In this document: piece by piece, positions 4,896 through 63,600 of the stretch | Layout of the letters: each line of letters begins with the position of its first letter | Position numbering within the stretch: the stretch's first letter is position 1 | Source: an uncultured Gammaproteobacteria bacterium | GTDB lineage: Bacteria; Patescibacteriota; Microgenomatia; Levybacterales; UBA12049 | Direction: 5' to 3' | DNA length: 64,000 bases | Assembly (NCBI GenBank): GCA_964507055.1 | Contig: CAZDOJ010000001.1 | Coordinates: forward strand, 1,170,050-1,234,049 | Made by a program: the position numbers and the translations under genes | Notes under the pieces: generated by a model | The model's database searches: none | Told to the model about the DNA's origin: nothing | What the model saw: only the letters and a program-made list of their open reading frames with translations

Positions 4896-4924
4896 TTGCA
4901 AGCTGGGATGCGGTAGTATATTAT
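4896..4924 (+). promoter_or_regulatory. Sigma70-type promoter TTGCAA-17-TATTAT, 8 nt upstream of the DUF4012 gene ATG (leaderless)
   Basis: ttTTGCAAgctgggatgcggtagtaTATTATtaaagaacATG; no SD. Confidence 0.5.
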
Positions 4925-35351: not shown

Positions 35352-35921
35352 TTATTTCTCAAACATAACAGGGATAACAAGTGGGCCAAGTTCTCCATCA
35401 TTAAACTCTGTATTGGTTCGTTCAATGACTAATTTGCCTGCAGAGGTTGTTGCTTCTGCTTTTGTGAATACGACGGCACCTGTAAATGGCACGAAACTGT
35501 CAGTCTTTGTGCTTTCAAGTGCTTTAAATGGCTTTAGAAAAAGAATTTTACCTTTATCATCTTCTAATCGCACCATTAACTGATCGGCATAGTACCATCC
35601 TCCCACCGCTTCTCCCGTGACTCGAAACGGACTTGTAACAAGTGTATTTGGTTTTGGTTCAGTCGTTTTTATAACGTCTTTAAGTAGTACACCATTGTAA
35701 ACTTCTACAAATACTTGTTTACCTTTCGTGTAACACTCCCGTGGTTTTGAATTGACTACAAGGTTGCCCGCTTCGGCACATTCTTCAAATGTTTTTATTT
35801 CTGTTGCAGCTTTCGGTTTGAGATTACCAAGTAGATTTGGAAAGAAAAAGAAGACGCCTACGGCAGCGAGGACGAGTGTGACGACAAGGGCAATAATTGC
35901 GTATTTCATGGCAGTATACAA
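35352..35921 (-). CDS. Gmad2 immunoglobulin-like domain protein, membrane-anchored
   Basis: N-terminal TM helix, then a beta-rich domain ...TSPFRVTGEAVGGWYYADQLMVRLEDDKGKIL... resembling Gmad2/GerMN-type Ig-like domains. Confidence 0.5.
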   Translation of the reverse strand: MYTAMKYAIIALVVTLVLAAVGVFFFFPNLLGNLKPKAATEIKTFEECAEAGNLVVNSKPRECYTKGKQVFVEVYNGVLLKDVIKTTEPKPNTLVTSPFRVTGEAVGGWYYADQLMVRLEDDKGKILFLKPFKALESTKTDSFVPFTGAVVFTKAEATTSAGKLVIERTNTEFNDGELGPLVIPVMFEK

Positions 35922-35965: not shown

Positions 35966-36775
35966 TTATACTCGTTCAGACACGATTCTATTCTCTTTAA
36001 CTCCTACGATATGTAATCCTAATGCTGGTAGTAGTAGTGTTCTTCCAGTCGTTCTTATCTTTTCTCGTGTGGTTTGAGCAGTAGGGACTTTTTTCCCAGG
36101 AAGTATTGTTGGATGATTCCTATTTCCAAACAATGTATAAACAGAATTATCTTCGATCATCTTTGGATAGTCATTGAGCTTTACTAGCAATTTGCCGTAT
36201 CGGATCCTTGCACGTTTTGTTTTCTTCGATTCCTTTTCATGAAACGTATTCCATACATCAAATTGTTTTTGTGTCAGATGCATAGAACCAGTGCATGTTG
36301 GTGTATGACATATACAAATATGTGAGCAGGGCTTACAGTATTTATCTGGACTGAGTTGATATGAAATTGTTAACTCTTCTCCTGGAAGTATTTTTCTTAG
36401 TGCAAAAAATAAAGTATGTCCTTTATAGGTATATATCCAACAATTTGGTTCGCAGGAATGATTGAGCATATGTGCTCCCGTTTGCTGTAAATCTTCTGGA
36501 TAGATTGCAGCATAGTCGTGATAATAAAGAAGATATAATCCATCTTTTTCACTTGTATCTTCTTCTGCAATTTTGATTACCTTACCTATATAATCGCTTA
36601 TCACAATTCCAGCGGAAATTTCTTTTCTTGCAAAAATTCCACGGCCTTTTTCCTCAGTTTGTTTTATTTCCCAAAATGAATTATCCAAAAGAATCATGAA
36701 GGCGATTGTATCGTATGTGTTGCAGTGCTGGCAAGAGAAACGTATACTACTATCTATGAAGAAGCGATTAACCAT
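35966..36775 (-). CDS. SET-domain protein (putative lysine methyltransferase) with post-SET Cys cluster
   Basis: ...KGRGIFARKEISAGIVISDYIG...; ...GAHMLNHSCEPNCWIY...; ...GEELTISY...; Cys cluster CKPCSHICICHTPTCTG. True start may be the internal Met at 36697. Confidence 0.75.
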   Translation of the reverse strand: MVNRFFIDSSIRFSCQHCNTYDTIAFMILLDNSFWEIKQTEEKGRGIFARKEISAGIVISDYIGKVIKIAEEDTSEKDGLYLLYYHDYAAIYPEDLQQTGAHMLNHSCEPNCWIYTYKGHTLFFALRKILPGEELTISYQLSPDKYCKPCSHICICHTPTCTGSMHLTQKQFDVWNTFHEKESKKTKRARIRYGKLLVKLNDYPKMIEDNSVYTLFGNRNHPTILPGKKVPTAQTTREKIRTTGRTLLLPALGLHIVGVKENRIVSERV

Positions 36776-36898
36776 TAAAGATAAAAAATTACGAGAAAAA
36801 GTTCGCGAGGGTAGGGAAGGATCAAAAAAGGATTTTATTGAGTTATTAAAGCGTGCTGTAAAGAGCTAGAAGGCATCTGAAATAATTAAGACGGTATA

Positions 36899-37375
36899 TT
36901 ATTCATCTTTTTGTTCATCATATTCAATCTTATAAAAGAACTTCCACATACTGATGCCTGTTTTCTTTTGTTCTTTTCCTTCTGTAGATAATAAATCTCC
37001 GTTATTCATTTCCATAAGCTCGTAAATACTTCGGTACATTCTCCACGCAGTTTTATAGGTAACTCCTAGTTCTCGTTGTAGCTGCTTAATAGTTATTTCG
37101 CCTCGGGTTTGTGTCATAAGAAAGCATGTATAAAACCATAAGCGAAGTGGAGTAGAGGATTTTTCAAAGATTGTCCCACTTAACGGGTATATATGGTTGC
37201 GACAATCCTTGCATGCGTAGGCGGTTCTATTTTTTATCTTGTAGTGTTTTGTAGTAGATTTACACAGTTCGCAATAGACGCCTTTCGGGTACTGTAGTTT
37301 TTTTATTTCCTCCAAACACATATCGTCATCTGGGAATCTTTGGAGGAAGTCGTGAAAAGAAAATTCTCCTTGCAT
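36899..37375 (-). mobile_element. IS1595-family transposase N-terminal fragment (Zn-ribbon + HTH only; DDE domain absent)
   Basis: MQGEFSFHDFLQRFPDDDMCLEEIKKLQYPKGVYCELCKSTTKHYKIKNRTAYACKDCRNHIYPLSGTIFEKSSTPLRLWFYTCFLMTQTRGEITIKQLQRELGVTYKTAWRMYRSI parallels the IS1595/ISXO2 transposase N-terminus. The ORF is 158 aa versus ~320 aa for intact enzymes. Confidence 0.65.
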
Positions 37376-37539
37376 AAAAACATATTAATGAACCTAATAG
37401 CGTGTTGTCAAGGGATAGGGGATAATATTGCCTATTGACGACTGGATGGGCAATTGTCTATGATGGATTTAATCTTAATAAACCATTAAACGAAATGAGT
37501 TTTTAAATTATAACTCCTTTCGCTATAGTGATATTAATT

Positions 37540-39855
37540 ATGAAACATAAACTTACTGCCACTCTCGATCATGTGATAACATTTCTACTCTTAGTAGTAG
37601 CTGGTATTACACCTCTTCTTTTCTTCAATCAAACAACTGAATTTTATGAAATGCCAAAACTTATTTTCCTAGTTGTCTCTGTTCTTGTTCTTATGGGTAT
37701 GTGGATCTTCTCTTGGATATTAAAAGGGAAGGTAATGATCACAAGAACTCCTCTTGATATTCCTTTATTAGTACTTCTCGTCGTTGTCGTTGCCTCAGCA
37801 TACTTCAGTGAATCACGATTCTCAGCAATTTACGGTAATTTCCCACGTGTTCACGGCTCTGCTGTGGCTTGGGTTACTTATATATTGTTGTACTTCGTGA
37901 CCGTTTCACACTTGCGTAACCTCACACAGATCAAGACCTTCATGTATACATTATATGGTAGTGGATTGGTCGTAGCTTTAATAAGTGTGCTCTCATACTT
38001 TGGATTATTCCTCCCATTGGATTTCGCAAAAGCGGTTAACTTTACTCCAACTGGTTCATCATTCTCAACAGTAGCATTCTTGCTTTTGCTCTTACCGTTC
38101 CCAGTATTATCTTTGATAAACCCTAACAAGTATCTTCCAACTGTTCCAGCTGTAGTCTTGGCATCAGTATTTGGTGTAACAATAGCACTCCTCGGGGGAG
38201 TAGCAACTTATATCGCAATGCTTTTGGTATTCGCACTTGCAGTCTTCGTTTCAAAACCTGCACAACTGCAAAAGACTGTAGCAATGTTCTTGATCCCTGT
38301 AGCGTTAACAGCTTTGACATTAGTACTGTCATACGTTCCACTGCCAGGCGGTATGAGTCAAATGCAGGCTAATTTCCCTAAAGAAATCCAACTTCCTTTC
38401 GCAACATCATGGAAAGTATCAGCATCAGCATTCCGAGATGCACCATTCATCGGAACAGGTCCTGCAACATATCTTTTCAACTTCACAAGTTACAAGCCAT
38501 TGGAATTCAACCAATTTGACTTCTGGAACTTCTCATTCGATACAGCGTACAATGAATTCTTGCAAGTACTTGGAACCTTGGGAATACTCGGACTCGTATC
38601 TCTCTTCCTCCTTTGCTTGATCGTTCTTAACTCAGCACGAAAGAATATGTCTCTCGACAATGCTGAAGCAACTCAAGAAGGTCATGATGGCTCAAGTGAA
38701 AGTGCACATGTATTACTTCCAGCATTAGCAATCAGTGGATTACTCAGTATCGTCTTACTCGCAATCCATGCAACAACTTTGGTCTCAATCGTTACAACTT
38801 TGTTCATCCTCGCAGCGTTCATGGTTTCACAGAAATCAGTAAGGGGTAGAGTAATGAAACTCTCAATGGGTATCAAAGCATCAACTTCAGAGAACAAGCA
38901 ATTCGATTTGTTCCCAGTACTCTTGTTCGTAGCTTTCTTAGTCGCAGCAGTTCCAGTCTTGGTTCAAACATTCAATACTGCAATGGCTGACTACTATCAC
39001 CGCCAAGCATTAACTCAAGCAAACCAAAATGGTACAAAGACATATGAGTTCTTGCAAAAAGCTGAATCAGCAAACCCATACATCGACCTTTACAGAGTTG
39101 ATATGGCACAAACTAACTTCGCTCTCGCAAATGCACTTGCAGCTCAAAAAGGCCCATCTGCACAGAACGAAAAAGGATCTTTGACAGACGCTGATAAGAA
39201 GACTATCCAAACACTTCTTTCACAATCAATCAACGAAAGTCGAGCAAGTGTAGCTTTGAGTCCACGATCATCACGAAACTGGGAAGTGCTTGCATCAATT
39301 TACCGAAACATCTCAGGGGTAGCACAGAATGCACTTGTATACTCACTTGATAGTTATGGCCGAGCAATCCAAAGAGATCCATTGAACCCAGCACTCAGAG
39401 TTAATGTAGGCGGTATCTATTACTCAATCAAGAACTATGATCTCGCTATTCGATTCTTCTCAGACGCAGCGAACTTGAAGCCAGACTATGCAAATGCATA
39501 CTTCAACTTAGCAATCGCTCTTCGAGATAAAGGCGACTTACAAAATGCGAAAGCAGTTGCAGAACAAGCAGTTAAGCTCTTATCAGAAAATAAAGAAACA
39601 CCTGACTACAAGACAGCATCAACTCTCTTGACTGAACTTAACAAAAAGATCGCTGACTCAGCAGATGAAACACCAACTCAGGCTTCATCATCAGCTCAGC
39701 AACAGCCAACAGCTCTTGAAAACGAAAACCTTGAAGATGTAAACGTAGACGGATTGGACAATGCACCATCAGTAACACCAGCACCAACTGTCCGACCAAA
39801 TCCAGCAGCTAACTTACCACAGGGCATCAACCCAACAGCTGCTCCAAGAAGATAA
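37540..39855 (+). CDS. O-antigen ligase-like (Wzy_C) polytopic membrane protein with C-terminal TPR repeats and a Pro/Thr-rich tail
   Basis: About 12 TM helices; TPR-like ...NAYFNLAIALRDKGDLQNAKAVAEQAVKL...; tail ...SVTPAPTVRPNPAANLPQGINPTAAPRR. The listed ORF start 37528 is GTG; ATG at 37540. Confidence 0.7.
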   Translation: MKHKLTATLDHVITFLLLVVAGITPLLFFNQTTEFYEMPKLIFLVVSVLVLMGMWIFSWILKGKVMITRTPLDIPLLVLLVVVVASAYFSESRFSAIYGNFPRVHGSAVAWVTYILLYFVTVSHLRNLTQIKTFMYTLYGSGLVVALISVLSYFGLFLPLDFAKAVNFTPTGSSFSTVAFLLLLLPFPVLSLINPNKYLPTVPAVVLASVFGVTIALLGGVATYIAMLLVFALAVFVSKPAQLQKTVAMFLIPVALTALTLVLSYVPLPGGMSQMQANFPKEIQLPFATSWKVSASAFRDAPFIGTGPATYLFNFTSYKPLEFNQFDFWNFSFDTAYNEFLQVLGTLGILGLVSLFLLCLIVLNSARKNMSLDNAEATQEGHDGSSESAHVLLPALAISGLLSIVLLAIHATTLVSIVTTLFILAAFMVSQKSVRGRVMKLSMGIKASTSENKQFDLFPVLLFVAFLVAAVPVLVQTFNTAMADYYHRQALTQANQNGTKTYEFLQKAESANPYIDLYRVDMAQTNFALANALAAQKGPSAQNEKGSLTDADKKTIQTLLSQSINESRASVALSPRSSRNWEVLASIYRNISGVAQNALVYSLDSYGRAIQRDPLNPALRVNVGGIYYSIKNYDLAIRFFSDAANLKPDYANAYFNLAIALRDKGDLQNAKAVAEQAVKLLSENKETPDYKTASTLLTELNKKIADSADETPTQASSSAQQQPTALENENLEDVNVDGLDNAPSVTPAPTVRPNPAANLPQGINPTAAPRR

Positions 39856-48682: not shown

Positions 48683-51600
48683 TTATTCTAATGGTGTTGC
48701 TGCGGATAATTCTTGTGGTTTTTCTGTACCGATCTGCATAATCATTTCAGTTGTTGAGAATGCTACTCCAACTGGAACCTCTTTGACCGCATCAACTGGT
48801 GCTACATCTGTTAGGGCTCCTGCAACTCCTAAGAAGTATTGCTTACCAGCTTCTAAGTTATTCAATACATTTGCTTTCCCACCGATGATGATGGTAACTT
48901 TCTCACCAGCCAATGCATCACCAGCAGCGATACCCACTACTGTTGTCTTTGCTTCATCTGTCGCATCTGCGATCATGACTTCTTCTGTATCTGAGATGTA
49001 AAGTGCATCTCCCTTTGTGATGTCTTCACCAGCTGTTGCTGATATAGTGATCGCTCCAGCGAGATCGATATTGCCGCCAACTTTGATGTTTTCTTTGGTT
49101 TCAACATTCTTTGCGACGATATTGCCTTTGGTAATCATTGTTCCGTTCTTGTCGATAACCATTGCTCCGTTGAAGATGTCGAGTAAGTTAGCAAGTGGTG
49201 ACTTCTGCAAGAACAAGATACCATCAGTTGGTTCTTCACCATTTTCGATTGGTGTACCGAAGACACTGATTTCATTTTCTGTGACAGAGAGTGTGCCGCC
49301 GACATTGATTCTGTCATCAACTGTGAGGACGCCAGCAACATTCGTATCTTCAAGTGTTGTCTTACCAGTTACCATTACATCACCTGAGATTGTTGTGTCA
49401 CCGAGGTATGATTTTCCAAATGACTTGAATGTATCCTGGATTGTTGCAGTGTATGCAGTGAATTCACCACTAACAGTTGCAGTTGAGAAGAATCCATGAT
49501 CAGTAGGGGATGCAGAATCCGATGCAATCAAGAGATCAGGTGATGTGAGATCTTCAGCTGATGGAGTAGGTTCTGCACTTTCACTTGCAGTTGGCGTAGC
49601 AGATGGTGAACCGACGCCACTTGTTGGAGTAGGGGTCGCTGATACATTGAGACTTGCGATGAGGTCATCAATTCTCTGACTCAAACTTGCAAGATCAGCT
49701 GAATTTGAAGCATTGTTGATTGCTTCAAGTTGTGCATTTAAGTTAGCGAGAACTGCATCTGTTGAAGCAACTCTGTCTCCAAGTGTTGCAGCATCGCTTG
49801 CTGCTTTTTCTGCGAGATCTTGTGCTGCTGCAAGTGCTGCTGCCTTTGCTGCTTCTTGTGACTCAAGGTTAGTGAGCCGTGTATCAAGTTGATTTGTCTT
49901 CTCTTCAAGACTGATTGCACTTGCTTGGAGTGATCCGATCGCAGTTGTCTTATTTGTGAGACTGTTGTTAACTGCGAGGAATGCATCAGCCAATGAACCG
50001 TTAACAACCTGACCGTCGATTTGCATATTTGATGGGAGGACAACTTCACCTGTTGTGATTTGTGTATCTTCATCAGTAAGGATAGCCAATTGGTTACTTG
50101 GATCAGCAAAGGTGACGTTAACAAATGTCATGACCTTGCCAACACCTGTGCCAGTGAAGTCTTCAAGTGCTTTACCGATAACTTGTCCTGGCTTGGTTGC
50201 TTTCATCGCGATACCAGCAACTGATGAAGAAGTGAGGTAATCGCCCTTTTTAATCTGTCCATTTTCTGTACTCACCTTGACTGGGACACGTCCAGCGAGA
50301 GCAACTGGAACTGCCTTGCCACCACTGATCATTTGTTCATTTTGTGATAGTCTAAAGCCTGGTTTTTCGCTGTAAACACCAATTATTGTAGTATCATATG
50401 TACCCTCTGATTTCTTGACGTTTTCAGCAACATCTTTGTCGATAGAGAGGATGTCACCAGCTTGCAGTGAATTGTCTTGTGTACCATAGTCTTCAGCCAA
50501 ATCATAGTTGCCGCCATTTGTTGTAAGTGTTCCGGACAATGTCGCGTTTCCAGTACTGTCGATAGAGAAGAGTTCTTGATTCGCAGCATTCTTCCACATG
50601 AATTTATTTGCATCCATACCTGTGTAGTCAGCAGCTAATTTACTAACCACATTACCTGTAATTCCTTCGATTGTTCCTGAGAGCAAGTCGAGGAGAGGAG
50701 TCCGAATTGTACCTGATGTTGTTAATGTTCCATTACCATCAATTGTTAATTCACTATTGTTACCGAATGCAGCTGCACTTGCAGTTAGATCTCCAAGGAT
50801 ATCGAAGTTCGCGTTGTGAGTCCAATCAGACAATCCATCATATGCTGCTTCCCCTGCATTTGGATTAGCATATCCAACATTCGCAAATGCCATAATCTTA
50901 CCCACAGACGGGTTCCAATTATTTGGATTAGAATGGTATTCCGCTAATTCTCCTGCATGGATTGAAGTTCTTTCGTTTTCTTCAAATAGAACATTTTCAG
51001 AAACTCGTACAGATCCATCATAATCTTCTAGAGCTTTACCGATAACTCGACCCCCTTTAGTTGCTTTCATAGCAACACCAGGAATTGAAGAACTGGTAAG
51101 GTAATCACCAATCTGAATAGGACCATTTTCTGTCGAGACTTTAAGCGGTACACGTCCTGCCAATCCTACCGGTTGTCTATTTGGAGATTTTACATTGTAA
51201 CCAATGATACCGTCAGCAATTGGGTTTGTTGAAACGATACCAATCATGTTGTCATCGTAAGTTCCATTAGATGCTGAAACCATGTAGTTTCCACCAGTTG
51301 ATGAGACGATGTCACCAGGTTCTACTGTACCATCAGTGTCATAGAATTCAGCTAAGTCAGCTTGGCCAGAAGTAGAACAGTCTCCAATTACAGCTTCGTT
51401 AAGTGCAACTCCGTTACCTGTACCGCCACCAGTTTGACATAGACGCTGTGTTTTAGCTCCTGATGCTGCATCAATTCTTACTTGTCCCTCAAAGTCATGT
51501 GTGCCAGTTCCGGTGACTTCAAGGTTTTCAGCAATTTCAATAACAGTATCAGTAGGGGAACTTATAACAGGTCTTGTCCCATCAAGATCAAAAGCAAGAT

Positions 51601-54600
51601 CAGTATTATCAGTTCCACCAGCACCTTGGAATTCAATACTACCGTTGGTGTTGTTATCAATTGTTTCACCATTCTGAAGTACAATATCGTTTGTAATATC
51701 TGTTGTTGCAATGTTAATACCATTGGTTATTGATCCTGCGAACCCGCCTGATACACCCAAGATTCTGATTGCACTTGTAACAGCTGCCGACTGGTTCTCA
51801 GAGTTTACGAGACAGAGGAGACATTCAACACCATCTGCATTTGTTGTACCAGTTGCAGCATTGACGATTTCAAATCCTCGAAGATTTGAATCACCATCAT
51901 TTTGTGTGAGTACCAATCGTGAACCATACAATGTGTCACTTGAAGAACCACCCTGTGCAGTGTAATCGAGTGAAAGACCGATATTGTTACCAGTAGATGA
52001 ATCAACATCAAGATCAAAGACACCAGTTGAAAGTGAATTGAGTGTACTGTCATTTGATGCAGCATCGATGAAGATTCTTTGTCCTGCTGCTTGGGTAAAT
52101 GTTGTTCCACCAGCTTCAGTTAGTGTTAAGAATGAAGTACCATTTCTGTTAACGATGAAGTCTCCAGTAGCTCCACTGACACCAAGGTTAACATTGATGT
52201 TGGAAGCACTTGATGGTTGGAGTGTGATATTACCAGTCCCACTACCAACGATTGTTGTACCAATTTCAGACTTCAACCAGAGATCACCATTGGATAGGGC
52301 AGAGAGTGATGATTGAGATCCACCGCCAGTTGATCCGAAGAGTATCTGACCATTTGTTGTGCCATTCAATCCAATTGTCAGTATGGATGAAGTAGCTGAT
52401 GCATCTGCAAATGAGAAGAGGGTATTTGTCCCGTCTGTTAATCCGAGTGTTCCACCATTTGCGAATGAGATCAATGGGTTACTGAAATTAAAGTTGATGT
52501 TACCAGTTGATTGAACTTGGAATAAGTCACCATTTCCAACAGTCAATGGAGCAGCTGGTGTCGCATCTCCGAATCCTACGTTTCCTTGGAAGTATGCAGT
52601 GCCATTTGAGTTCAACTTAACGCCGTATGAAGTATTAAGTGTTGGAACTGCTGCACCAGTCAATGCTGTACCAGTATCAATGATTGAGTTGGTTGTTGTT
52701 GTTAAGTATCCAGTTTGGTTATTTGATGATGTTCCTCGATATACTCGGTATGATGTCGCACCTGCAACTGCTGTCCAGTTGATTGTAACTCTCTGGCCAA
52801 GAGTAACTGCTTGTGCATTTTCAGGACTTGTAGTTGTTTCACCACCAGCTGCATCAAGTGCTGTAACTTTGTAGTAATAGGTGCCCGTTGCGAGTGTTCC
52901 ACCACCAGCTGCAGTACCCATAGATAATGCTCCAGGAGCTGACATGTTAAGACCCATGTTATTCCCAGCTCCAAGAACGAATTTCTCTTGTGGAGTTGCT
53001 GTACCAAATCCTACATTTCCACCAGCAACGATCAAGCCGTAGTTCGTAGCACTTGCTCCACTTGCATCGAAGTATCCTGCGATGTTTGTCGCACTATTTG
53101 TTGTTGTATTAACGATCGATCGGACACCATATGATGTGTGGTTAGCATTTACATTGGTTCCAGATCGTGCGATATCAAGCATGTATGTTGTACCACTTGC
53201 TCCACCATTGGTTGCTGAATTTGTGATAGCAACTGCTGGAGTAGAAACATTTGTTGTACTGATTTGAAGAACATCACTTGCTGTTGCATTGGAGATAACA
53301 CCAGTTGAGAAGTTCTTGTTGAAGTAACCGAATTGGACCGTACCAGAGTTAGCTGTTGATGTGAATCCACCTGCACAAGCCAAGTTACCATTACTGTTGG
53401 TAACTGTACAACCTGTTGATGCTGAAGTTCCAGCGATGTTAACATCTCCAGTTTGTGTATTACTTTGGAGGTTAAGTGCTCCTGAACCATTTGCATTTAC
53501 ACTGACTGCTGCGTTTGTTGTGGTAGCAGCGATCACTGGTGCTGATCCGGAAAGATTAATTGTATTTGTACCCATTGTGAGGACGCCACTACCAAATGTT
53601 ACTGGTCGGTTCGTTGTGGTATTGATTCCAAGTGTTGCTGATCCACCAGTTGCATCGATGATTGGAGCAGTACCAGTTAGGTTGATTGCGTTGGATGCGA
53701 GTGCTGTTGTCGCACCTGATACTGTCAAACCACCAGCTACTGTTGTCGTACTTCCTGATGCACCGATTGCGAGTGATGAAGCACCGCCACCGATATTCAA
53801 AGTTGATGTCTGAACTGTGTTAAACAAGTTAACAGTTGATCCTGATGTTGCTGAGATATCGCCTCCGTTAACGATCAAATCACCAGTCATTGTTGTCGCA
53901 TTTGTTCCGAGGAATGAATATGTTGGGTTCGTTGAGCCGTTACCAAATGAGATATTTTCTGAGCTGTTTGTGGTGTTGATGTTAATGTAATTATTTGCAC
54001 CTTCTTGAACATCAAGAGCATCAGTATTGTTATCAACTAAGTTTGCAGTAATATCACTTCCTGCACCATTTGCTGTAAGTGAAACTGTTGTTCCGGAAAG
54101 AGCAATTGCATCGCCGCCATCACCGATGTTTGCTGCACCATTTGCAGTGAGTGTACCAGCAACTGTTAATCCATTATTAACTGTTGTTGTTCCAGTAGCA
54201 GCTCCGAGTGAAACAGTTGTTGCAGCACCACCGATGTTCAATGTTGTTGCGACTGTGTTGAAGACATTTGCAGTTGATTTCGCAGCGATCAATGTTGATT
54301 GCGTAGAACCATCAATTGTCAAACCATTTGATGCTGTAACTGCACCGGTCAATGTAGAGATGCCATCAACTGTTAATGTACCATTTGTTGAGATGTTTCC
54401 AGTGTTTGCGATTGTAGCACCAGTTGATCCGTAACCGCCGCCGACATTTACTGTATCGAATCCTGCGGTTGCATTTGTTGCAGCGATTGATGTTGCGTTA
54501 GGGAAGTTAATTGTTGTTCCTCGGATGTTGCCTGTTGCATTGGTTGCACCCAAAGTGTATGTCGTTGCAGCTCCACCAATATTGAGTGTTGTTGCTCCAG

Positions 54601-57600
54601 TATTGAAGAGGGAAGCTGTGCCAGCAGTTGTTGTAAGATCTCCACCATTCAATGCTGCATCTCCAGCACTAGTGATATCTCCACTTGCACCAGCAACTGA
54701 GAAGTTAGTACCTGATATATCATTTGCTCCGAATGAAAGTGCTGTTCCGATATCTGCATTACTAACATCAAGAGCTGTTGTGACATTGCCACTTGGAGTT
54801 CCAGCAATTCTCAATGCGATTGGTAATGCTCGATTAGTGTCTTTGTTGTCTATCAAAACGAGTTGTGTAGGATCTGCAGTTCCAGCACCATCAGCTCGTG
54901 AGATTTCGACGCCACCTGTTGAACCTGTTGCTGTTGTAACAGTGAATTTAGAATCAGCTGTTGTGTCAGCAAGTGTGAATGCGATGTCTCTGTTGTTTGT
55001 TGTAGTGATTGCATTGCCATTGTCATATGCACTTTGGAGACTTTGTGATGCACCGTCACATTTAACAACTTGATTTGAGCCATTGACACAAACACCAGTT
55101 CCAGCAGCAGTTGTCAAACCATTCAATGTTATGAATGAATCAGCGTCTGATGTAATTGTTACGCCATTTGTTCCATTTGGTGAGAAGTTAGATTGACCAT
55201 TTGCTGTAAATGTCTGACCTGATGCAACTGTCAAACCACTGTTCACAGTTGTTGTTCCACCATTTGCTCCGAGTGCGATTGTTGTAGCAGCACCACCGAT
55301 GTTGAGTGTAGTAGCTCCGGAATTAACCAAGTTGAATGTACCAGCAGTTGTTGTAAGATCTCCACCATTAACAGCAACGTCACCAGTTGCAGTAACATTA
55401 CCAGTTAATGTTGAAGCACCATCAACTGTTAATGTACCGTTTGCTTGGATATTTCCAGCGTTACTGACTGAAACGCCAGTTGACCCGTAACCACCGCCGA
55501 TTGAGAGGGAATCAGCATTGAATGCAGCGGTCAACGCAGAGATTGTTGTTGCATTGTTGAAGTTGATTGTTGTTCCTCGGAGGTTACCAGTCGCATTAGT
55601 TGCACCGATTGTGTATGCGGTTGCAGCACCACCCATGTTAAGTGTTAATGCATTTGTATTGAATACTGTTGCTGTTCCTGTACCTGATGTAGTGATGTCA
55701 CTTCCATTGACAGCTAAGTCACCTGATGTAGTGATGTTACCAGTTGATCCAACGATCCCGAAGTTGGTTGCAGATACGTTACTTGCTCCAAGTGCGATAC
55801 CTGTTGTGATACTTGCATCACTGACGTCGATACCTGTTGTTACGCCGCCGCCACCTGAGGATGTTACTTTCAAACCAGCTGGAATTGCTCTATTTGTGTC
55901 AGCATTGTCGATCAAGATAAGTTGTGCAGGATCGTTTGTACCAGCTCCATTTGCTCTTGAGAATGTAGAGAATCCAGTTGATCCATCAGCTGTTGTTACT
56001 GCAAAGTTAGAATCAGTTGCAGTATCAGCAAGTGTGAATCCGATATTTCGAGCATCAGTTGTTGTTATGGTATTTCCATTGTTGTATGCAGTTTGCAGGT
56101 TAAGAGATGCTGCATTACATGTACCAACATTGTTTGATCCATCGAGACAGAGTGTAGTACCAGCAACTGACTGAAGTCCTGTTAATACCAAAGTTGAATC
56201 AGCATCTGTTGCAAATGTAATGTCGTTTGTACTATTTGGTGAGAATGAAACTGCACCAGCTGTTGTGAGTGTACTGTTGTTACCGACAGTCAAAGCATTT
56301 CGTACAGTTGTTGTACCAGTTGTTGCACCGAGAGCAACTGTTGTTGCAGCACCACCAATGTTAAGTGTGGTAGCGGTTGTATTGAATAAGTTACCTGTTG
56401 TCTTTGATGAAACCAAGTCTGATGTTGATGCACCATTAATTGTTACACCATTCGATGCTGTAACTGCACCAGTCAATGTTGATGCTCCATCAACTGTGAG
56501 TGCACCATTTGCTTGAACATCTCCAGCACTACTTACTGAAACGCCAGTTGATCCGTAACCGCCACCGATAGCTGTTGAACTGATGTTAAGAGCAGCTGAA
56601 TTTGCTGTGATAGTTGTCGCGTTAGGGAAGTTGATTGTTGTACCTCGGATATTCTGTGTTGCAGTTGTTGCACCTGTTGTCAGTGTTGTTGCTGCACTTC
56701 CCATTGTTACTGTTGTTGCATTTGTATCGAAGATTGAACCGGTTGTTGCAGTTGTTGAAAGTGTTCCACCATTGACTGCGACATTGCCAGCTGTTGTGAC
56801 ATTACCGTTTGCACCAGAGATAGAGAAGTTACTTGCAGATACATCGTTTGCTCCGAGTGAAAGTGCAGTGACGATACTTGCGTCTGAAAGATCAAGTGCA
56901 GTTGTAATTCCGCCACCACCTGTTGATGTAATAGCCAATCCAGTTGGAAGTGGTCGGTTAGCATCTGCATTATCGATAAGAACTAATTGATTTGGATCAG
57001 ATGTTCCAGCACCATTTGCTCGTGAGAAGACTGTTCCACCAGTTGATCCATCAGCTGTTGTGATAGTGAAGTTAGAATCAGTAGCAGTGTCAGCAAGTGT
57101 GAATCCAATGTTTCTATTGTTTGTTGATGTGATGGTATTTCCATTATCATATGCAGCTTGCAAACTTGCGTTTGCTGTCAAATCACATTTAACAACTTGG
57201 TTGGAACCATTTACACAAAGTGTTGGTTGTGCACCTGATGCTGTTGTCAAACCACTGACAGTCAAGAATGAATCAGAATCAGTTGCGATTGTGACACCAT
57301 TTGTACTGTTAGGTGAGAATGAAACTGCACCACTTGTTGTCAAAGCACTGTTGTTTGCAACAGTCAAAGCATTTCGGATCGTTGTTGTACCAGTTGTTGC
57401 ACCGAGTGAAACAGTTGTAGCAGCGTTACCGATGTTAAGTGTCGTAGCACCAGTATTGAAGATATTTCCAGTTGCAAATGTTGTTGTAATATCTCCACCA
57501 TTTACTGCGATATCACCTGATGATGTGATGTTTCCAGTTAAGTTAGAAGTACCATCAACTGTTAAGTTACCATTTGCTTGGATGGTGCCAGCATTACTGA

Positions 57601-60600
57601 CTGAAACTCCTGTTGAACCATAACCGCCACCGATTGTAGCAGCATCGATTGTTACTGTCGCACCACTTGCATTCAATGCTGTTGCATTTGGAAGTGCGAT
57701 TGTTTGGTTATTGATTGTTGCTGTACCACTTGCACCGCCGATGTTCAATGTTGTTGCTGCTCCAGCGAAGTTCACTGTTGTTGCAGTTGCATCAACTAAG
57801 TTGAATGTTGTTTCATCAGTTGAGATTGTTCCACCATTTGCAGCGATTGATCCGTTAGCTGAAAGATTACCATTTGAACCAGTGAGTGAGAAGTTGGTTG
57901 CAGTGATGTCATTTGCACCAAGTGAAAGTGCATTACCGATTTCAGCATCTGAGAGATCAAGTGCTGTAGTGATACCACCAGCTGCTGCTTGTACTTTAAT
58001 ACCTGCAGCAACTGCTCTGTTTGTATCCAAGTTATCAACCAAGATCAATTGGTTTGGATCAGCTGTTCCACTACCATTTGCTCGAGTGAACGATGAGAAT
58101 CCAGTTGATCCATCAGCTGTAGTGATAGTGAAGTTAGCATCAGTTGTTGTATCAGCGAGTGTGAATCCGATATCTCGAGCATCTGTTGTAGCGATTGTGT
58201 TGCCAGCATTGTATGCAGCTTGCAAACTGAATGACGCCGCTGAACATGTACCGACATTACTTGATCCATCAACACAAAGTGTTGTTCCAGTAACTGATTG
58301 CAAACCAGTTAATACCAAAGTTGAGTCAGCATCAGTGTTGATTGTAATATCACTTGTGCTTGCAGGTGTAAGTGAAACTGCACCAGTTGTAGTGAGTGAA
58401 CTGTTGTTAGCAATTGAAAGATTATTGTTCACAGTTGTTGTGCCAGTTGCTGCACCGAGTGAAAGAGTTGTAGCAGCACCACCGACATTCAATGTTGTTG
58501 CAGTTGTATTAAAGAGGGAAGCTGTTGTTTGATTTGTAGTAACGTCGCCGCCGTTAACAGCAACGTCTGCTGCAGCTGTTACATTTCCAGTCAAAGTTGA
58601 AACACCATCAACTGTTAATGTACCGTTTGCTTGGATATTACCAGCGTTAGAGATAGTAGCACCAGTTGAACCGTAACCGCCACCGATTGCTACTGAATCA
58701 AATGTCGCTGCTGCACCAGCTGCTGCAAATGTTGTAGCGTTAGGGAAGTTGATTGTTGTACCTCGGATATTTCCTGTTGCTGCTGTTCCACCAATTGTGT
58801 ATGTTGTCGCAGCACCACCGATATTCAATGTCGTAGCAGTTGTGTTAAAGAGGGAAGCAGTTGTCGCTGATGTCGTAACATCGCCACCATTCACAGCAAC
58901 ATCACCAGTTGTTGTGATGTTTCCAGTGCTACCTGCGATAGAGAAGTTGCTTGCAGTGACATCATTTGCTCCGAGTGAAAGTGCGTTACCGATTGTTGCA
59001 TCTGAAAGATCAAGTGCAGTTGTTACTCCAGCTCCACCAGCGGAACCGATCTTCAATCCAACTGGGAGGATTCGGTCTGCATCCAAGTTGTCGATCAAGA
59101 CTAATTGTGTTGGATCATTTGTACCAGCACCGTTTGCTCGTGCGAATACTGAGTAACTGGTTGAGTCATCAGCAGTTGTTACTGAGAAGTTCGAATCAGT
59201 TGCAGTATTTGCAAGTGTGAAGTCGATATTTCTGTTGTTTGTTGTTGTGATAGTGTTGCCATTGGTATATGCAGCTTGCAAACCTTGTGACGCAGAGTTA
59301 CATGTCCCAACATTATTGCTACCATCGATACAAAGTGCAGTACCTGTAAGTGATTGCAAACCAGTCAAGATCAATGTTGAATCGGCATCAGTTGCGAAAG
59401 TAATGTCATTTGTACTGTTTGGTGAGAATGAAACAGCACCCGCACTTGTTAATGTTCTGTTATTTCCGATTGTTAAATTGTTGTTCACAGTTGTTGTACC
59501 GGTTGTTGCACCAAGAGAGAGGGTAGTAGCAGCGCCGCCAACATTCAATGTAGTGACACCAGAGTTAAGAAGATTAAATGTTGTTGCACTTGATGTTAGG
59601 TCCCCACCATTGATAGCGACATCAGCTGTCGCAGTAACATTACCAGTCAAAGCAGAAGTACCATCAATTGTTAAGTTACCATTCGCTTGGATATCTCCAG
59701 CATTTGAAAGTGTTGTTCCAGTCGTTCCATAACCGCCACCGATAGCAATAGTATCAAATGTCGCAGCAGCTTGTGGAGCAGTGAAGGATGTAGCGTTAGC
59801 GAAGTTGATAGTCGCATTTCGGATGTTTGCTACACCAGTTGTTGCACCTAAGTTAACAGTTGTTGCAGCGCTACCGATATTCAATGTTGTTGCATTGGTA
59901 TTGAACAAATTACCGGTTGTTTGTGATGTAGCAATAGTACCTGAATTAGCATTGATATTTCCTGAGAATGTACTTGCACCAGTTCCTAAGAATGAATATG
60001 TTGGGTTAGTGGTTACATTACCGAATGAAAGATTCTCAGAACCATTTGTTGTGTTCAAGTTAATGTAGTTATTTGAACCTTCCTGGATATCAAGAGCGTT
60101 TGCATTGTTATCAACTACAGTTGCAGTTAAGTTATTGTTAAGTGTTGTTGTCCCAGTTCCTGCACCGAGAGCAACAGTTGTAGCAACTCCACCGATATTT
60201 AGTGTTGTAGCATTGGTATTAAGAAGATTGAATGTTGTTTGTGATGTTGTAAGATCTCCGCCATTTACAGCAACATCACTTGCAGCGGTAACATTTCCAG
60301 TTAATATTGATGTGCTATCAACTGTCAAAGTTCCATTGGTTGAAACATTCCCGGCATTACTTACTGTCAAACCAGTAGAGCCATAACCTCCGCCGACGTT
60401 TAATGTATCGATATTTGCAGTTGCTCCTGCTGCGTTAATTGCAGTTGCATTTGGAAGAGAGAGGGTAGCGTTGTTGATCGTTGCTGTTCCACTATTTGCA
60501 CCGATGGTAACATTGGTAGCAGTGCCGCCAGCATTCAATGTTGTGACTCCAGAGTTAAGAAGATTGAATGTTGTTGCAGAAGATGTAAGATCTCCACCAT

Positions 60601-63600
60601 TGATAGCGACATCAGCTGTCGCAGTAACATTACCAGTCAAAGCAGAAGTACCATCAATTGTTAAGTTACCATTTGCTTGAACATTTCCTGTACTGCCAAG
60701 TGTTACACCAGTTGAACCGTATCCACCGCCAGCATTTACGACATCGAATCCTGCAGTTGCTGAATTTCCGTCGATTGTTGTTGCGTTCGGGAAGTTGATT
60801 GTCGTACCTCGGATATTTCCAGTCGCATTGGTTGCACCCAAAGTGTATGTCGTAGCCGCACCACCAACATTCAATGTTGTAACGCCGGTGTTAAGAAGAT
60901 TGAATGTACCAGCACTTGATGTTAAGTCTCCACCATTTACAGCTACATCAGCTGAAGTTGTGATGTTGCCAGTTGCGGTGATTGTTCCTGAAGTGTTGAT
61001 GTTGCCGTTAGAACCAGTGATAGAGAAGTTGGTAGCGGTAACATCATTCGCACCAAGTGAGAGAGCATTGACTATCTCAGCATCTGAAAGATCAAGAGCA
61101 TTTGTAATTCCACCAGCTGCAGCTTGGATCTTAATACCAGCTGGTAATGCTTCGTTTGTATCCAAGTTCTCGATCAATTGTAATTGTGCTGGTGGAGTAG
61201 TATTTGTACCGTTAGCCAAACCGAAGTATGAATAGCCAGTTGAACCAGCAGCAGTTGTCACTGTGAAGTTGGAATCAGTTGAAGTATTAGCTAAGTTGAA
61301 TGCGATGTCTCGTGCATCTGATGTCGTGATTGTGTTACCACCAGCATATGCATTTTGGAGACTGAGTGTTGCATTTGCACACTGAACAACATTGTTTCCA
61401 CCGTCGAGACAGAGTGGGGTACCAGTTGTTGTACCCAAACCATTCAAGATGATTGTTGAATCTGTATCAGTTGTAAATGTGATGTCATTGGTACTGTCTG
61501 GAGCAAATGTAGAAGCACCATTTGCGTCGAATGATTGACCAGTTGCGACTGTTGCACCGCCATTGAATGTTGCGAGTCCTGTTGCAGTTGTTACTCCATC
61601 AATAAGAAGGTCATTGTTGATATTTGTTGTGCCAGTTGCTGCACCCAAGTTAAGTGCAGTTGCTGCACCACCGATATTGATTGTAGTTGCTGTTGTATTG
61701 AGTAAGTTAAATGTACTTGCACCAGTTGTTAAGTCACCACCATTGATAGCGACATCACCAGTTGCTGTTACGTTACCAGTCAATGCGGAAGTGCCATCGA
61801 TAGTCACATTACCGTTTGCTTGGATGTTGCCAGCGTTAGAGATTGAAACGCCAGTTGAGCCGTAACCGCCGCCAACATTTAATGTATCAAATCCAGCAGT
61901 TGCTGAAGTTCCATCGATAGTTGTTGCATTGTTAAAGTTGATTGTCGTACCTCGGATATTTCCAGTCGCATTGGTTGCACCCAAAGTGTATGTCGTAGCC
62001 GCACCGCCAACATTCAATGTCGTAGCATTGCTGTTGAACAAGTTAGCTGTTGTTTGGTTGGTAGCGAGTGTACCTGAATTAGCATTTATGTTCCCAGTTG
62101 CAGTGATAGTTCCACTTGTTGTGATGTTGCCGTTAGAACCAGTGATCGAGAAGTTGGTGGCAGCTACATCATTAGCACCAAGTGAGAGTGCATTAACGAT
62201 TTCAGCATCTGAAAGATCCAATGCATTAGTGATACCACCAGCAGCTGATTGAACTTTTATGCCAGCAGCAACTGCTCGATCAGTGTCTTGATTGTCAACC
62301 AAGATCAGTTGTGCTGGGTCTGAAGTGCCTGCACCATTTGCTCGAGCGAAGATACTTGTACCAGTTGAACCATCAGCTGTTGTTACTGTGAAGTTAGAAT
62401 CAGTTGTAGTGTTCGTCAATGTGAAGGCGATGTCTTTTGCGTCTGTTGTGTCGATTGTATTTCCACCAACATATGCATTTTGGAGACTGAGTGTTGCATT
62501 TGCACATTGGACAACATTGTTACTGCCATCGAGACAAAGTGAAGTGCCAGCTGCTGTACCAAGCCCAGTCAAGACAAATGTTGAGTCAGCATCAGTTGCA
62601 AAAGTAATGTCATTTGTACCATTTGGTGTAAATGTACTTGTACCATTTGCAGTCAATGTTTGACCTGATGGGATAGTTGCACCACCATTGAATGTTGCTA
62701 CGCCAGTTGCTGTCAACGCATTATTAACTGTAGTTGTTCCAGATGATGCACCAAGTGAAAGGGTAGTAGCAGCATTGCCAATATTCAATGTTGTAACTCC
62801 AGAGTTAAGAAGATTGAATGTTGTTGCAGAAGATGTAAGATCTCCACCGTTGACTGCAACGTCGGCAGCAGCAGTTACATTACCAGTCAATGTTGAGATG
62901 CCATCAACTGTCAAAGTTCCATTTGCTTGGATATTTCCAGAGTTACTGATCGTTGCACCAGTAGAACCATAACCACCGCCGATAGCAACTGAGTCAAAAG
63001 TAGCAGCAGCTTGTGGAGCAGTGAATGATGTAGCGTTAGCGAAGTTGATAGTCGCATTTCGGATGTTAGCAATACCAGTTGTTGCACCCAAGTTAACAGT
63101 AGTGGCAGCACTACCAACATTGAGTGTCGTAGCAGTTGTATTGAATAAGTTACCAGTAGTTTGTGATGTAGCAATTGTTCCAGAGTTAGCATTGATGTTC
63201 CCACTGAATGTACTTGCACCGGTTCCGAGGAATGAATATGTCGGATTTGTTGTCGTGTTACCAAATGTGATGTTTTCTGCACCGTCAGTTGTGTTTACAT
63301 TGATGTAGTTGTTACTGCCTTGCTGAATATCAAGAGCATTTGCATTGTTGTCGACCATATTAACAGTCAAGTTATTGTGTAATGTTGTTGTTCCGGTTCC
63401 GGCACCAAGTTCAATTGTTGTAGCATCGCCACCGATATTTAATGTTGTAGCATTGGTATCAAGTAAGTTAAATGTAGAAGCAGATGTCGTCAAGTCACCA
63501 CCATTGATAGCGACATCTCCAGTTGCAGTGACATCACCAGTAAGTGTTGAAGTTCCATCAATTGTGAGTGAACCATTCGCTGAGATATCACCAGCACTAC

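Follow-up and report, generated by a model that had tools for sequence, protein, structure and literature searches.

Exapted transposon proteins are represented by the THAP-, BED- and CENP-B-type factors of eukaryotes and, in bacteria, by the TnpB-derived TldR repressors. In this work, we describe a locus which seems to belong to the same kind, its source being a bacterial insertion sequence (IS) of the IS1595 family. It is placed in a 64,000-nucleotide (nt) stretch of contig CAZDOJ010000001.1 (assembly GCA_964507055.1, positions 1,170,050 to 1,234,049), called the window throughout, and its central gene codes for a 158-amino-acid (aa) Zn-ribbon and helix-turn-helix (HTH) protein, which we name ZnR. 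Like the exapted host genes mentioned above, ZnR keeps a nucleic-acid-binding module without catalysis, is vertically inherited and selected, and a regulatory role is proposed for it; unlike them, it comes from the transposase of a bacterial DDE-type IS, and the repeat with its promoter and an accessory open reading frame (ORF) of the element appear to have been retained. Clear domestications of DDE transposases in bacteria are rare, and this one has living full-length relatives sharing the upstream box, the small ORF and the recognition helix. Literature searches turned up no account of a prokaryotic IS1595 domestication, nor of SET proteins from the candidate phyla radiation (CPR).

The closest described system is that of IS1, the promoter of which overlaps the left inverted repeat (IRL). 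InsA, the Zn-finger and HTH part of the IS1 transposase, represses this promoter, competes with the transposase at IRL and at the right inverted repeat (IRR), and when provided in trans abolishes IS1 transposition (PMC12428005). At the sequence level ZnR resembles InsA in two respects, as it consists of the transposase DNA-binding region only and its promoter is overlapped by a cognate repeat-type box. InsA is the product of an active IS present in many copies and arises when no frameshift takes place, whereas ZnR is encoded by a stand-alone chromosomal gene at a single locus, belongs to IS1595 and not to IS1, has been conserved over a span that saturates synonymous sites and is tied to a host gene; its binding is predicted. 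Compared with IS1595-family (ISXO2-like) elements, the window locus has the same N-terminal module, upstream box and small convergent ORF, but neither a DDE domain nor a right repeat, and it is unrepeated in the window and fixed in its genomic position. We regard as moderately probable the reading in which ZnR is an exapted IS1595 DNA-binding module acting as an InsA-like repressor at its own promoter and at that of a divergent gene for a Wzy_C-TPR membrane protein, with the neighbouring SET gene being a separate one.

Known prokaryotic SET proteins methylate histone-like or nucleoid proteins, or histones of the host (PMC3980110). Like cpnSET/NUE, LegAS4/RomA, Go1-SET and KMT2/MLL, the SET protein of the window has the SET and post-SET fold with all catalytic motifs; unlike them, it bears an extra C-terminal domain of about 100 aa. 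The bacteria which have its family are free-living or episymbiotic members of the CPR, not intracellular pathogens, and the family looks inherited rather than recently transferred.

ZnR, a transposase-derived module at a fixed chromosomal position

The gene of ZnR occupies positions 36899-37375 on the minus strand. A preliminary description of this DNA, made from the letters alone, had recognised there a 158-aa protein with the IS1595 N-terminal region and next to it a SET protein, and both are real minus-strand ORFs. Residues 15-60 of ZnR match PF12760 (Zn_ribbon_IS1595) with an E value of 1.9e-8, above the cut-off, while residues 72-125 align with just positions 1-55 of the 215 positions of NF033547, the NCBIfam model of IS1595 transposases; this is a homology to transposase N-termini. 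PF12762 (DDE_Tnp_IS1595) had no match in ZnR, and in tblastn the DDE halves taken from five full-length relatives detected nothing below E 0.1 in any frame of the window. The DDE domain, reported as missing in the preliminary description, is truly absent and not frameshifted, and a displaced copy downstream, which would have made the element intact, was not found.

The AlphaFold model built with 24 homologues is confident over residues 1-125, which form two helices, a four-stranded Zn ribbon and a three-helix HTH, and the tail (residues 129-158) is disordered in it. A PDB sequence search with the profile of the short family gave no match, and Foldseek with the ZnR model returned weak and partial HTH or Zn-ribbon similarities to winged-helix DNA binders and a zinc ribbon (FtsK-gamma, Lrp, NudC). 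In an exhaustive search against cluster representatives, residues 1-125 were 40-60% identical to a larger set of proteins including some of about 300 aa, which carry PF12762, are annotated as IS1595-family transposases and are located on plasmids; with the N-termini of these DDE-bearing proteins ZnR shares 45-60% identity. In the joint alignment the short family stops just after strands beta1-beta2 of the DDE fold; several members retain G.VEIDE, the strand bearing the first catalytic Asp, and the copy in the window has lost this as well. The recognition-helix region ELGVTYKTAWRM is invariant within the short family and the same in full-length elements of many phyla, so that the GVTYKTAW helix and the Zn-ribbon CxxC..CxxC pattern are common to ZnR and full-length IS1595 transposases. 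These comparisons show ZnR to be the N-terminal, predicted DNA-binding module of an IS1595-type transposase. As for membership in the IS1595 family, the window locus has the N-terminal Zn ribbon with HTH, and it has no DDE domain, no inverted repeats at both ends and no sign of mobility, there being one ZnR copy within 64 kb with the same neighbours in 10/10 lineages. As a side observation, the 509-aa protein P0287 contains the same Zn-ribbon and HTH module (41% identity over residues 7-136) fused to HTH_11, WYL and WCX domains; here the N-terminal part of an IS1595 transposase has been recruited a second time, and independently, to a protein built like a regulator.

A homologue search of 5.8 billion proteins yielded 927 homologues of ZnR. 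The best 120 of these 927 are all 152-196 aa long (all but one 152-175 aa), with a query coverage of 82-100% (94-100% in all but two) and 53-100% identity, and PF12760 is their sole domain; neither frame nor length changes across over 100 clusters, the most distant of which have 53% identity. Between ZnR and its relatives the rate of nonsynonymous substitutions (dN) is 0.10-0.38 and that of synonymous substitutions (dS) is saturated, which made the Nei-Gojobori dN/dS not computable for most pairs (0.035-0.23 where computable), and four-fold degenerate sites were compared instead. Over 45 locus pairs identity averaged 34% at four-fold sites, 58% in amino acids and 80% in the upstream block of about 65 nt. 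Because length is constant, synteny fixed, dN low with dS saturated and the upstream block conserved, ZnR is under purifying selection and not decaying. The comparisons thus show, at the level of sequence, a gene inherited vertically at one chromosomal position, and the idea of a domesticated DNA-binding protein, one of two offered in the preliminary description, is strongly supported. The other, an IS remnant, stands in so far as the insertion is very old, fixed and selected; a random remnant it is not.

Synteny was followed on the contigs of ten family members, from 100% down to 53% identity to ZnR of the window (compared loci are cited below by numbers with the prefix L). In 10/10 lineages the short gene lies 105-165 bp from a divergent gene coding for a Wzy_C and TPR protein of about 760-780 aa; in the window this gene, recognised by Pfam match, occupies 37540-39855 on the plus strand and its product is an O-antigen-ligase-like membrane protein of 771 aa. 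Three of the ten lineages (L102-L104) were examined as predictions, and the adjacency held. At least 29 further contigs, matched by equal contig size, were common to the homologue lists of the short gene and of Wzy_C-TPR. A protein identical to ZnR is present on a 1.32-Mb contig, and the contigs bearing the identical protein all have the same neighbours. Wzy_C-TPR is thus a divergent partner that ZnR has throughout, and it is likely to be a regulatory target. The wider surroundings are those of an ordinary chromosome, with genes for DnaG, a sigma-70 factor, spermidine synthase-like proteins and a tRNA synthetase, and neither GC content nor composition breaks at the locus. On the other side, a protein with a Gmad2-type Ig-like domain (PF10648) and an N-terminal membrane helix is encoded at 35352-35909 (minus strand), and it follows the module in the window, L001, L009, L011 and L017; it may be a part of the same envelope-related neighbourhood as Wzy_C-TPR.

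The DDE domain was lost in an ancestor of a Patescibacteria (CPR) clade, for which the source names attached to homologues ("Patescibacteria group", "Candidatus Saccharimonadales" for L104, GCA_035479535.1, and "Candidatus Levyibacteriota") indicate Saccharimonadales or Microgenomates-like bacteria. Locus L017 (CAZLSZ010000005.1), labelled "uncultured Gammaproteobacteria", has the same Wzy_C-TPR, short gene, small ORF and Gmad2 block as the Patescibacteria contigs, and its label or binning is probably wrong.

Putatively repeat-derived promoter box and small ORF shared with full-length elements

The block upstream of the short gene has the form GTCAATAGGCAAT-N9-TATCCCTTGACA(A/G)CACG ... -10 hexamer-N6-ATG. 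The box TATCCCTTGACAACACG (37401-37417 of the window, minus strand), putatively derived from the IS repeat and invariant in the 10 syntenic loci, holds the -35 hexamer TTGACA (37406-37411) of the putative ZnR promoter, TTGACA-18-TAATAT (37382-37411, minus strand, with TAATAT at 37382-37387). This promoter agrees with the consensus in 10/12 positions of the scan, and all relatives have kept it; no more than 6 nt separate its -10 hexamer from the ATG, so that the mRNA should be leaderless. Back to back with it stands the invariant box ATTGCCTATTGAC (on the minus strand GTCAATAGGCAAT) together with a divergent promoter directed toward Wzy_C-TPR, TTGACG-18-TATGAT (37427-37464, plus strand, also 10/12), whose TTGACG is located at 37435-37440, and about 24 bp lie between the two -35 hexamers. 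By eye, the alignments show an equivalent divergent -35/-10 pair at the same place in every relative. The promoter scan in total was not above chance (8 found versus 7.2 expected), and it is conservation, rather than the scan, that carries the argument.

The 13-mer GTCAATAGGCAAT was exact in all 17 short-family loci fetched at first and in 0/84 other loci, and L102-L104 have it with 1-3 substitutions; judged by this distribution, it is a property of the domesticated locus. As a separate observation, GGCAAT and TATCCC stand exactly 9 nt apart in the domesticated promoter of the ten lineages (in the window around 37417-37427) and abut each other in full-length elements (GGCAaTTATCCC); in the window and in the loci closest to it, the 9 nt placed between them look like a second TATCCCC core. 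A second copy of either box was not found in the window, where the exact motifs are unique and matches with two mismatches occur at chance level (13 versus 14.6 expected for the repeat box). Inverted repeats flanking the locus, a search for which the preliminary description had suggested, were also not found: between 35.3 and 38.0 kb terminal repeats were represented by short, AT-rich, chance-level pairs only, and no right-end repeat was present. Hexamers of the -10 type end 6-7 nt before the ATGs of the short gene (37375), the SET gene (36697) and the small ORF (36756), with no room for a Shine-Dalgarno sequence at these three starts, which suggests leaderless mRNAs as a common feature of this organism. 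In front of the small ORF, most relatives have kept the same spacing.

The box has counterparts in complete elements. The comparison set came from a scan of genome contigs with the family alignment; among the matches listed nearly all were full-length transposases, L017 being the sole short-family locus, and TATCCCTTGAC stands at a distance of 40-100 nt upstream of the IS1595-type transposase genes of this set. A metagenome scan with the single protein contributed little, with 3 loci. The exact 11-mer TATCCCTTGAC was present within 400 nt upstream in 66 of the 83 GVTYKTAW-bearing IS1595-type loci listed, nearly all full-length, and its carriers include Acidobacteriota, Chloroflexota, Saccharibacteria, Curtissbacteria, Blackburnbacteria, Levyibacteriota and others. 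All these loci had been chosen via the GVTYKTAW peptide. In L018 (Curtissbacteria) the likeness to the domesticated promoter continues through GTAAATAGCTT to the -10 hexamer. An exact reverse complement of the box was found 1.96-4.4 kb downstream in 17 loci, and the two copies of a locus have 25-35 nt in common, among them bases that vary from locus to locus but are the same on both sides; these pairs emerged from a search with the motif itself, mainly in Acidobacteriota. We infer that they are the inverted repeats of the IS, each carrying a putative inward-facing promoter. At L072 a convergent passenger gene (6273-6845, minus strand, 190 aa) lies between the repeats at 4921 and 6869.

This IS1595 subgroup deserves a short description of its own. 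It is widespread in Acidobacteriota, with inverted repeats of 25-35 nt (..GGTAATTATCCCTTGACA..) bearing inward -35 boxes, and its elements measure 2-4.4 kb and have convergent passenger ORFs (L021, L036, L038, L071, L072, L077, L080, L084, L085, L094 and others). Full-length copies that carry this box also occur in related CPR genomes (L018, L019, L026, L048, L066, L078).

Between the short gene and the SET gene, in what the preliminary description had taken for a 123-bp gap, a conserved ORF of 37 aa is located (36756-36869, plus strand, MKKRLTIKDKKLREKVREGREGSKKDFIELLKRAVKS), rich in Lys and Arg and convergent with ZnR. An ORF of 37-43 aa with the pattern M.KKRL.IKDKKL....GGRKGAKKDFFELLKRA.. 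is found directly 3' of the short gene in 10/10 lineages, with dN/dS of 0.08-0.23 where computable, and has no Pfam or NCBIfam match. A hidden Markov model (HMM) of this small ORF detected convergent ORFs which in L026, L048 and L018 come straight after the full-length transposase gene, and another about 1.8 kb downstream of the transposase in L066 (E 4e-12 to 9e-9 for these four), while weaker matches, ending in R.DF..LL(K/R)RA..P, follow acidobacterial copies. We read the small ORF as a retained accessory gene of the ancestral IS. Because its homologues follow full-length genes, the ancestral element would have consisted of the left repeat with promoter, the transposase and the small ORF on the opposite strand, and the domesticated locus is, on this comparison, the same element with the transposase gene shortened at its 3' end by about 130 codons and with no right repeat left. 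The composition of the 37-aa protein suggests nucleic-acid binding; more speculatively, in the SET-adjacent subclade it could be a substrate of the neighbouring SET methyltransferase.

The neighbouring SET gene

The SET gene (35966-36697, minus strand) codes for a protein of 243 aa resembling SET and post-SET lysine methyltransferases, with a PF00856 match of E 2.5e-19 and 70.1 bits against a cut-off of 22.4. It begins almost certainly with the ATG at 36697 and not at 36775, as assumed in the preliminary description, because relatives are called with 243-245 aa and a -10-like hexamer stands 7 nt upstream; this hexamer belongs to a promoter-like site, TTGCCA-18-TACAAT (36705-36734, minus strand), found by the consensus scan (10/12), 7 nt before the ATG. 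No variation was seen among 24 homologues in the motifs NHSCxPN and GEELTxSY or in the Cys cluster of the post-SET region, and all of them share N79, H80, C82, P84, N85, E107, E108, T110 and Y113 in the SET part and C121, C124, C128, C130 and C135 in the post-SET part. The family profile has its best match in SET and post-SET of KMT2A/MLL1 (E 4e-21, aligned through residue 138), and the structural model, with a predicted local distance difference test (pLDDT) of 90, was likewise matched best by Foldseek to MLL1 over 143 residues (E 2e-10). Residues ~143-243 (35966-36268) form an extra conserved alpha/beta domain of about 100 residues, modelled with high confidence, which had no PDB match in the Foldseek search; its invariant positions are W149, Y177-P178, D183, Y187, P205, R211, I214-R215, G218 and G232, and it may serve substrate recognition. 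The family counts 384 detected members with CPR source names, nearly all of about 245 aa and of the same three-part architecture.

The position of this gene is less constant than that of Wzy_C-TPR. SET follows the small ORF in L001-L010, where the short gene is 76-100% identical, and the adjacency extends to relatives at least 68% identical (contigs matched by equal size), including a 2.6-kb contig with both genes. The identical IS-derived module without SET at the locus is found in L011, L013, L015, L017 and L102-L104; directly after the small ORF stands the Gmad2 gene in L011 and L017 and other genes in L013, L015 and L102-L104. In one relative SET lies 1.6 kb downstream and in another about 17 kb away, in both cases beside a gene of the major facilitator superfamily (MFS). 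Identities of SET and ZnR correlate over 12 contig-paired genomes (Mantel r 0.73, p 1e-4), dN/dS of SET is 0.12-0.16, and an integrase, transposase or repeat flanking SET was not seen in any context examined. Because the family is spread in this way, co-diverges with ZnR and shows no mobile hallmarks, SET is considered an inherited gene of the lineage, and its adjacency here is best described as a local rearrangement in one subclade. Its product would be a KMT2-like SET/post-SET methyltransferase, vertically inherited and separate from the ZnR module, of which the activity is predicted; a bacterial basic protein, own or of the host cell, is the most plausible guess for the substrate. The family, well conserved in CPR and equipped with an extra C-terminal domain, is now defined for biochemistry.

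The preliminary description had supposed a mobile element to be the vehicle, or the companion, of SET on its arrival, a conclusion which is tempting but not supported: co-divergence, relatives having the module without SET and the lack of flanking hallmarks all oppose it, and the vertical conservation of SET at this position, named there as an observation that would contradict mobile arrival, holds within its clade.

Proposed regulation and competing explanations

According to the scenario we propose, an IS1595 element inserted, its DDE part was lost, and what remained was the promoter-bearing left repeat, the DNA-binding module and the small ORF. In the parent IS the Zn-ribbon/HTH module would recognise the repeats; ZnR would correspondingly bind TATCCCTTGACA over its own -35 hexamer and repress itself, as InsA of IS1 does. 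With TATCCCTTGACA back to back with the TTGACG box of Wzy_C-TPR, ZnR would probably co-regulate that envelope gene, and as a possible secondary role it could compete in trans with full-length IS1595 transposases at the same repeat. Autorepression and co-regulation of Wzy_C-TPR are proposed because the recognition helix and the repeat-derived -35 box have been kept, as in InsA. We thus read the locus as an immobilised, exapted two-gene IS and not as debris. A more far-reaching version, which we hold to be possible but doubtful, is that a complete two-gene IS was exapted once in the ancestor of a large Patescibacteria clade and now regulates Wzy_C-TPR, with the old inverted repeat as operator; if true, it would be a clear bacterial case in which a transcription factor and its binding site were both born from a DDE insertion sequence. 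The proposed binding site of ZnR is known in advance, which makes the hypothesis directly testable.

Several observations weigh against this account. The operator role follows from IS-repeat homology and conservation, part of which could be explained by a strong promoter alone, and no second copy of the box in the window means that no regulon is visible beyond the divergent pair. The full-length CPR copies L018, L019, L048, L066 and L078 have the left box and no recognisable right copy, a repeat search around the CPR full-length copies gave no clear end pairs, and a target-site duplication was not found by eye in L071, the one locus inspected, so that "terminal inverted repeat" is the best reading and not a demonstration. 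The contig pairings behind the 29 co-occurrences and the Mantel test rely on equal size, only some of them having been verified directly. The taxonomy leans on few source-given names, and one syntenic metagenome-assembled genome (MAG) is labelled Gammaproteobacteria.

If ZnR were mainly selected for transposon immunity, it would, as a chromosomal inhibitor of the InsA kind with a DNA-binding domain alone, occupy the TATCCCTTGAC repeats of full-length IS1595 elements, resident or incoming, and block their transposition and transcription, its position beside Wzy_C-TPR being a historical accident. Such a function agrees with the sameness of ELGVTYKTAWRM and of the DNA box in the short family and in full-length elements of many phyla, with the six full-length copies residing in related CPR genomes and with the effect of InsA on IS1 in trans (PMC12428005), but it leaves unexplained the invariant GTCAATAGGCAAT box, the adjacency to Wzy_C-TPR in 10/10 lineages and the retention of the small accessory ORF, and we consider it rather unlikely. 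That ZnR is a decaying IS1595 pseudogene, which marks an insertion and has no current function, can hardly be believed. The missing DDE domain, the single repeat-like end left and the annotation of homologues as "transposase" in the sources would fit it; it is contradicted by the same position in all ten lineages, by the constancy of frame and length over more than 100 clusters to 53% identity, and by low dN at saturated dS together with a promoter block more conserved than the protein. Nor are the homologues assembly duplicates of one population, as they span 53-100% identity and come from many samples.

The remaining explanation makes SET the cargo of an IS1595-type element or, in a variant, ZnR a dedicated regulator of SET. 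Convergent passengers between the repeats are indeed present in full-length elements of the group, as seen in L072, and SET begins just past the small ORF, the divergent start codons of the two being 58 bp apart. Against this explanation speak the lack of a right-end repeat downstream of SET or elsewhere in the window (the 13 versus 14.6 matches given above), the seven loci sharing the identical module without SET, the relatives in which SET stands 1.6 or about 17 kb off beside the MFS gene, the correlated distances of SET and ZnR, and the SET promoter, which has no repeat-derived box. We judge this explanation very improbable in both forms.

The exapted-repressor reading also touches annotation practice. 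PF12760 is on standard lists by which mobile DNA is flagged (PMC13639185). Genes like that of ZnR are routinely labelled "transposase" and counted as mobile, and such a label is mistaken for what, in the reduced genomes of CPR bacteria, is a conserved host gene with a probable regulatory role.

Apart from the locus discussed, the end of the window is occupied by a single ORF of 5053 aa (48683-63844, minus strand) which spans 15 kb. Giant surface proteins are typical of CPR genomes.

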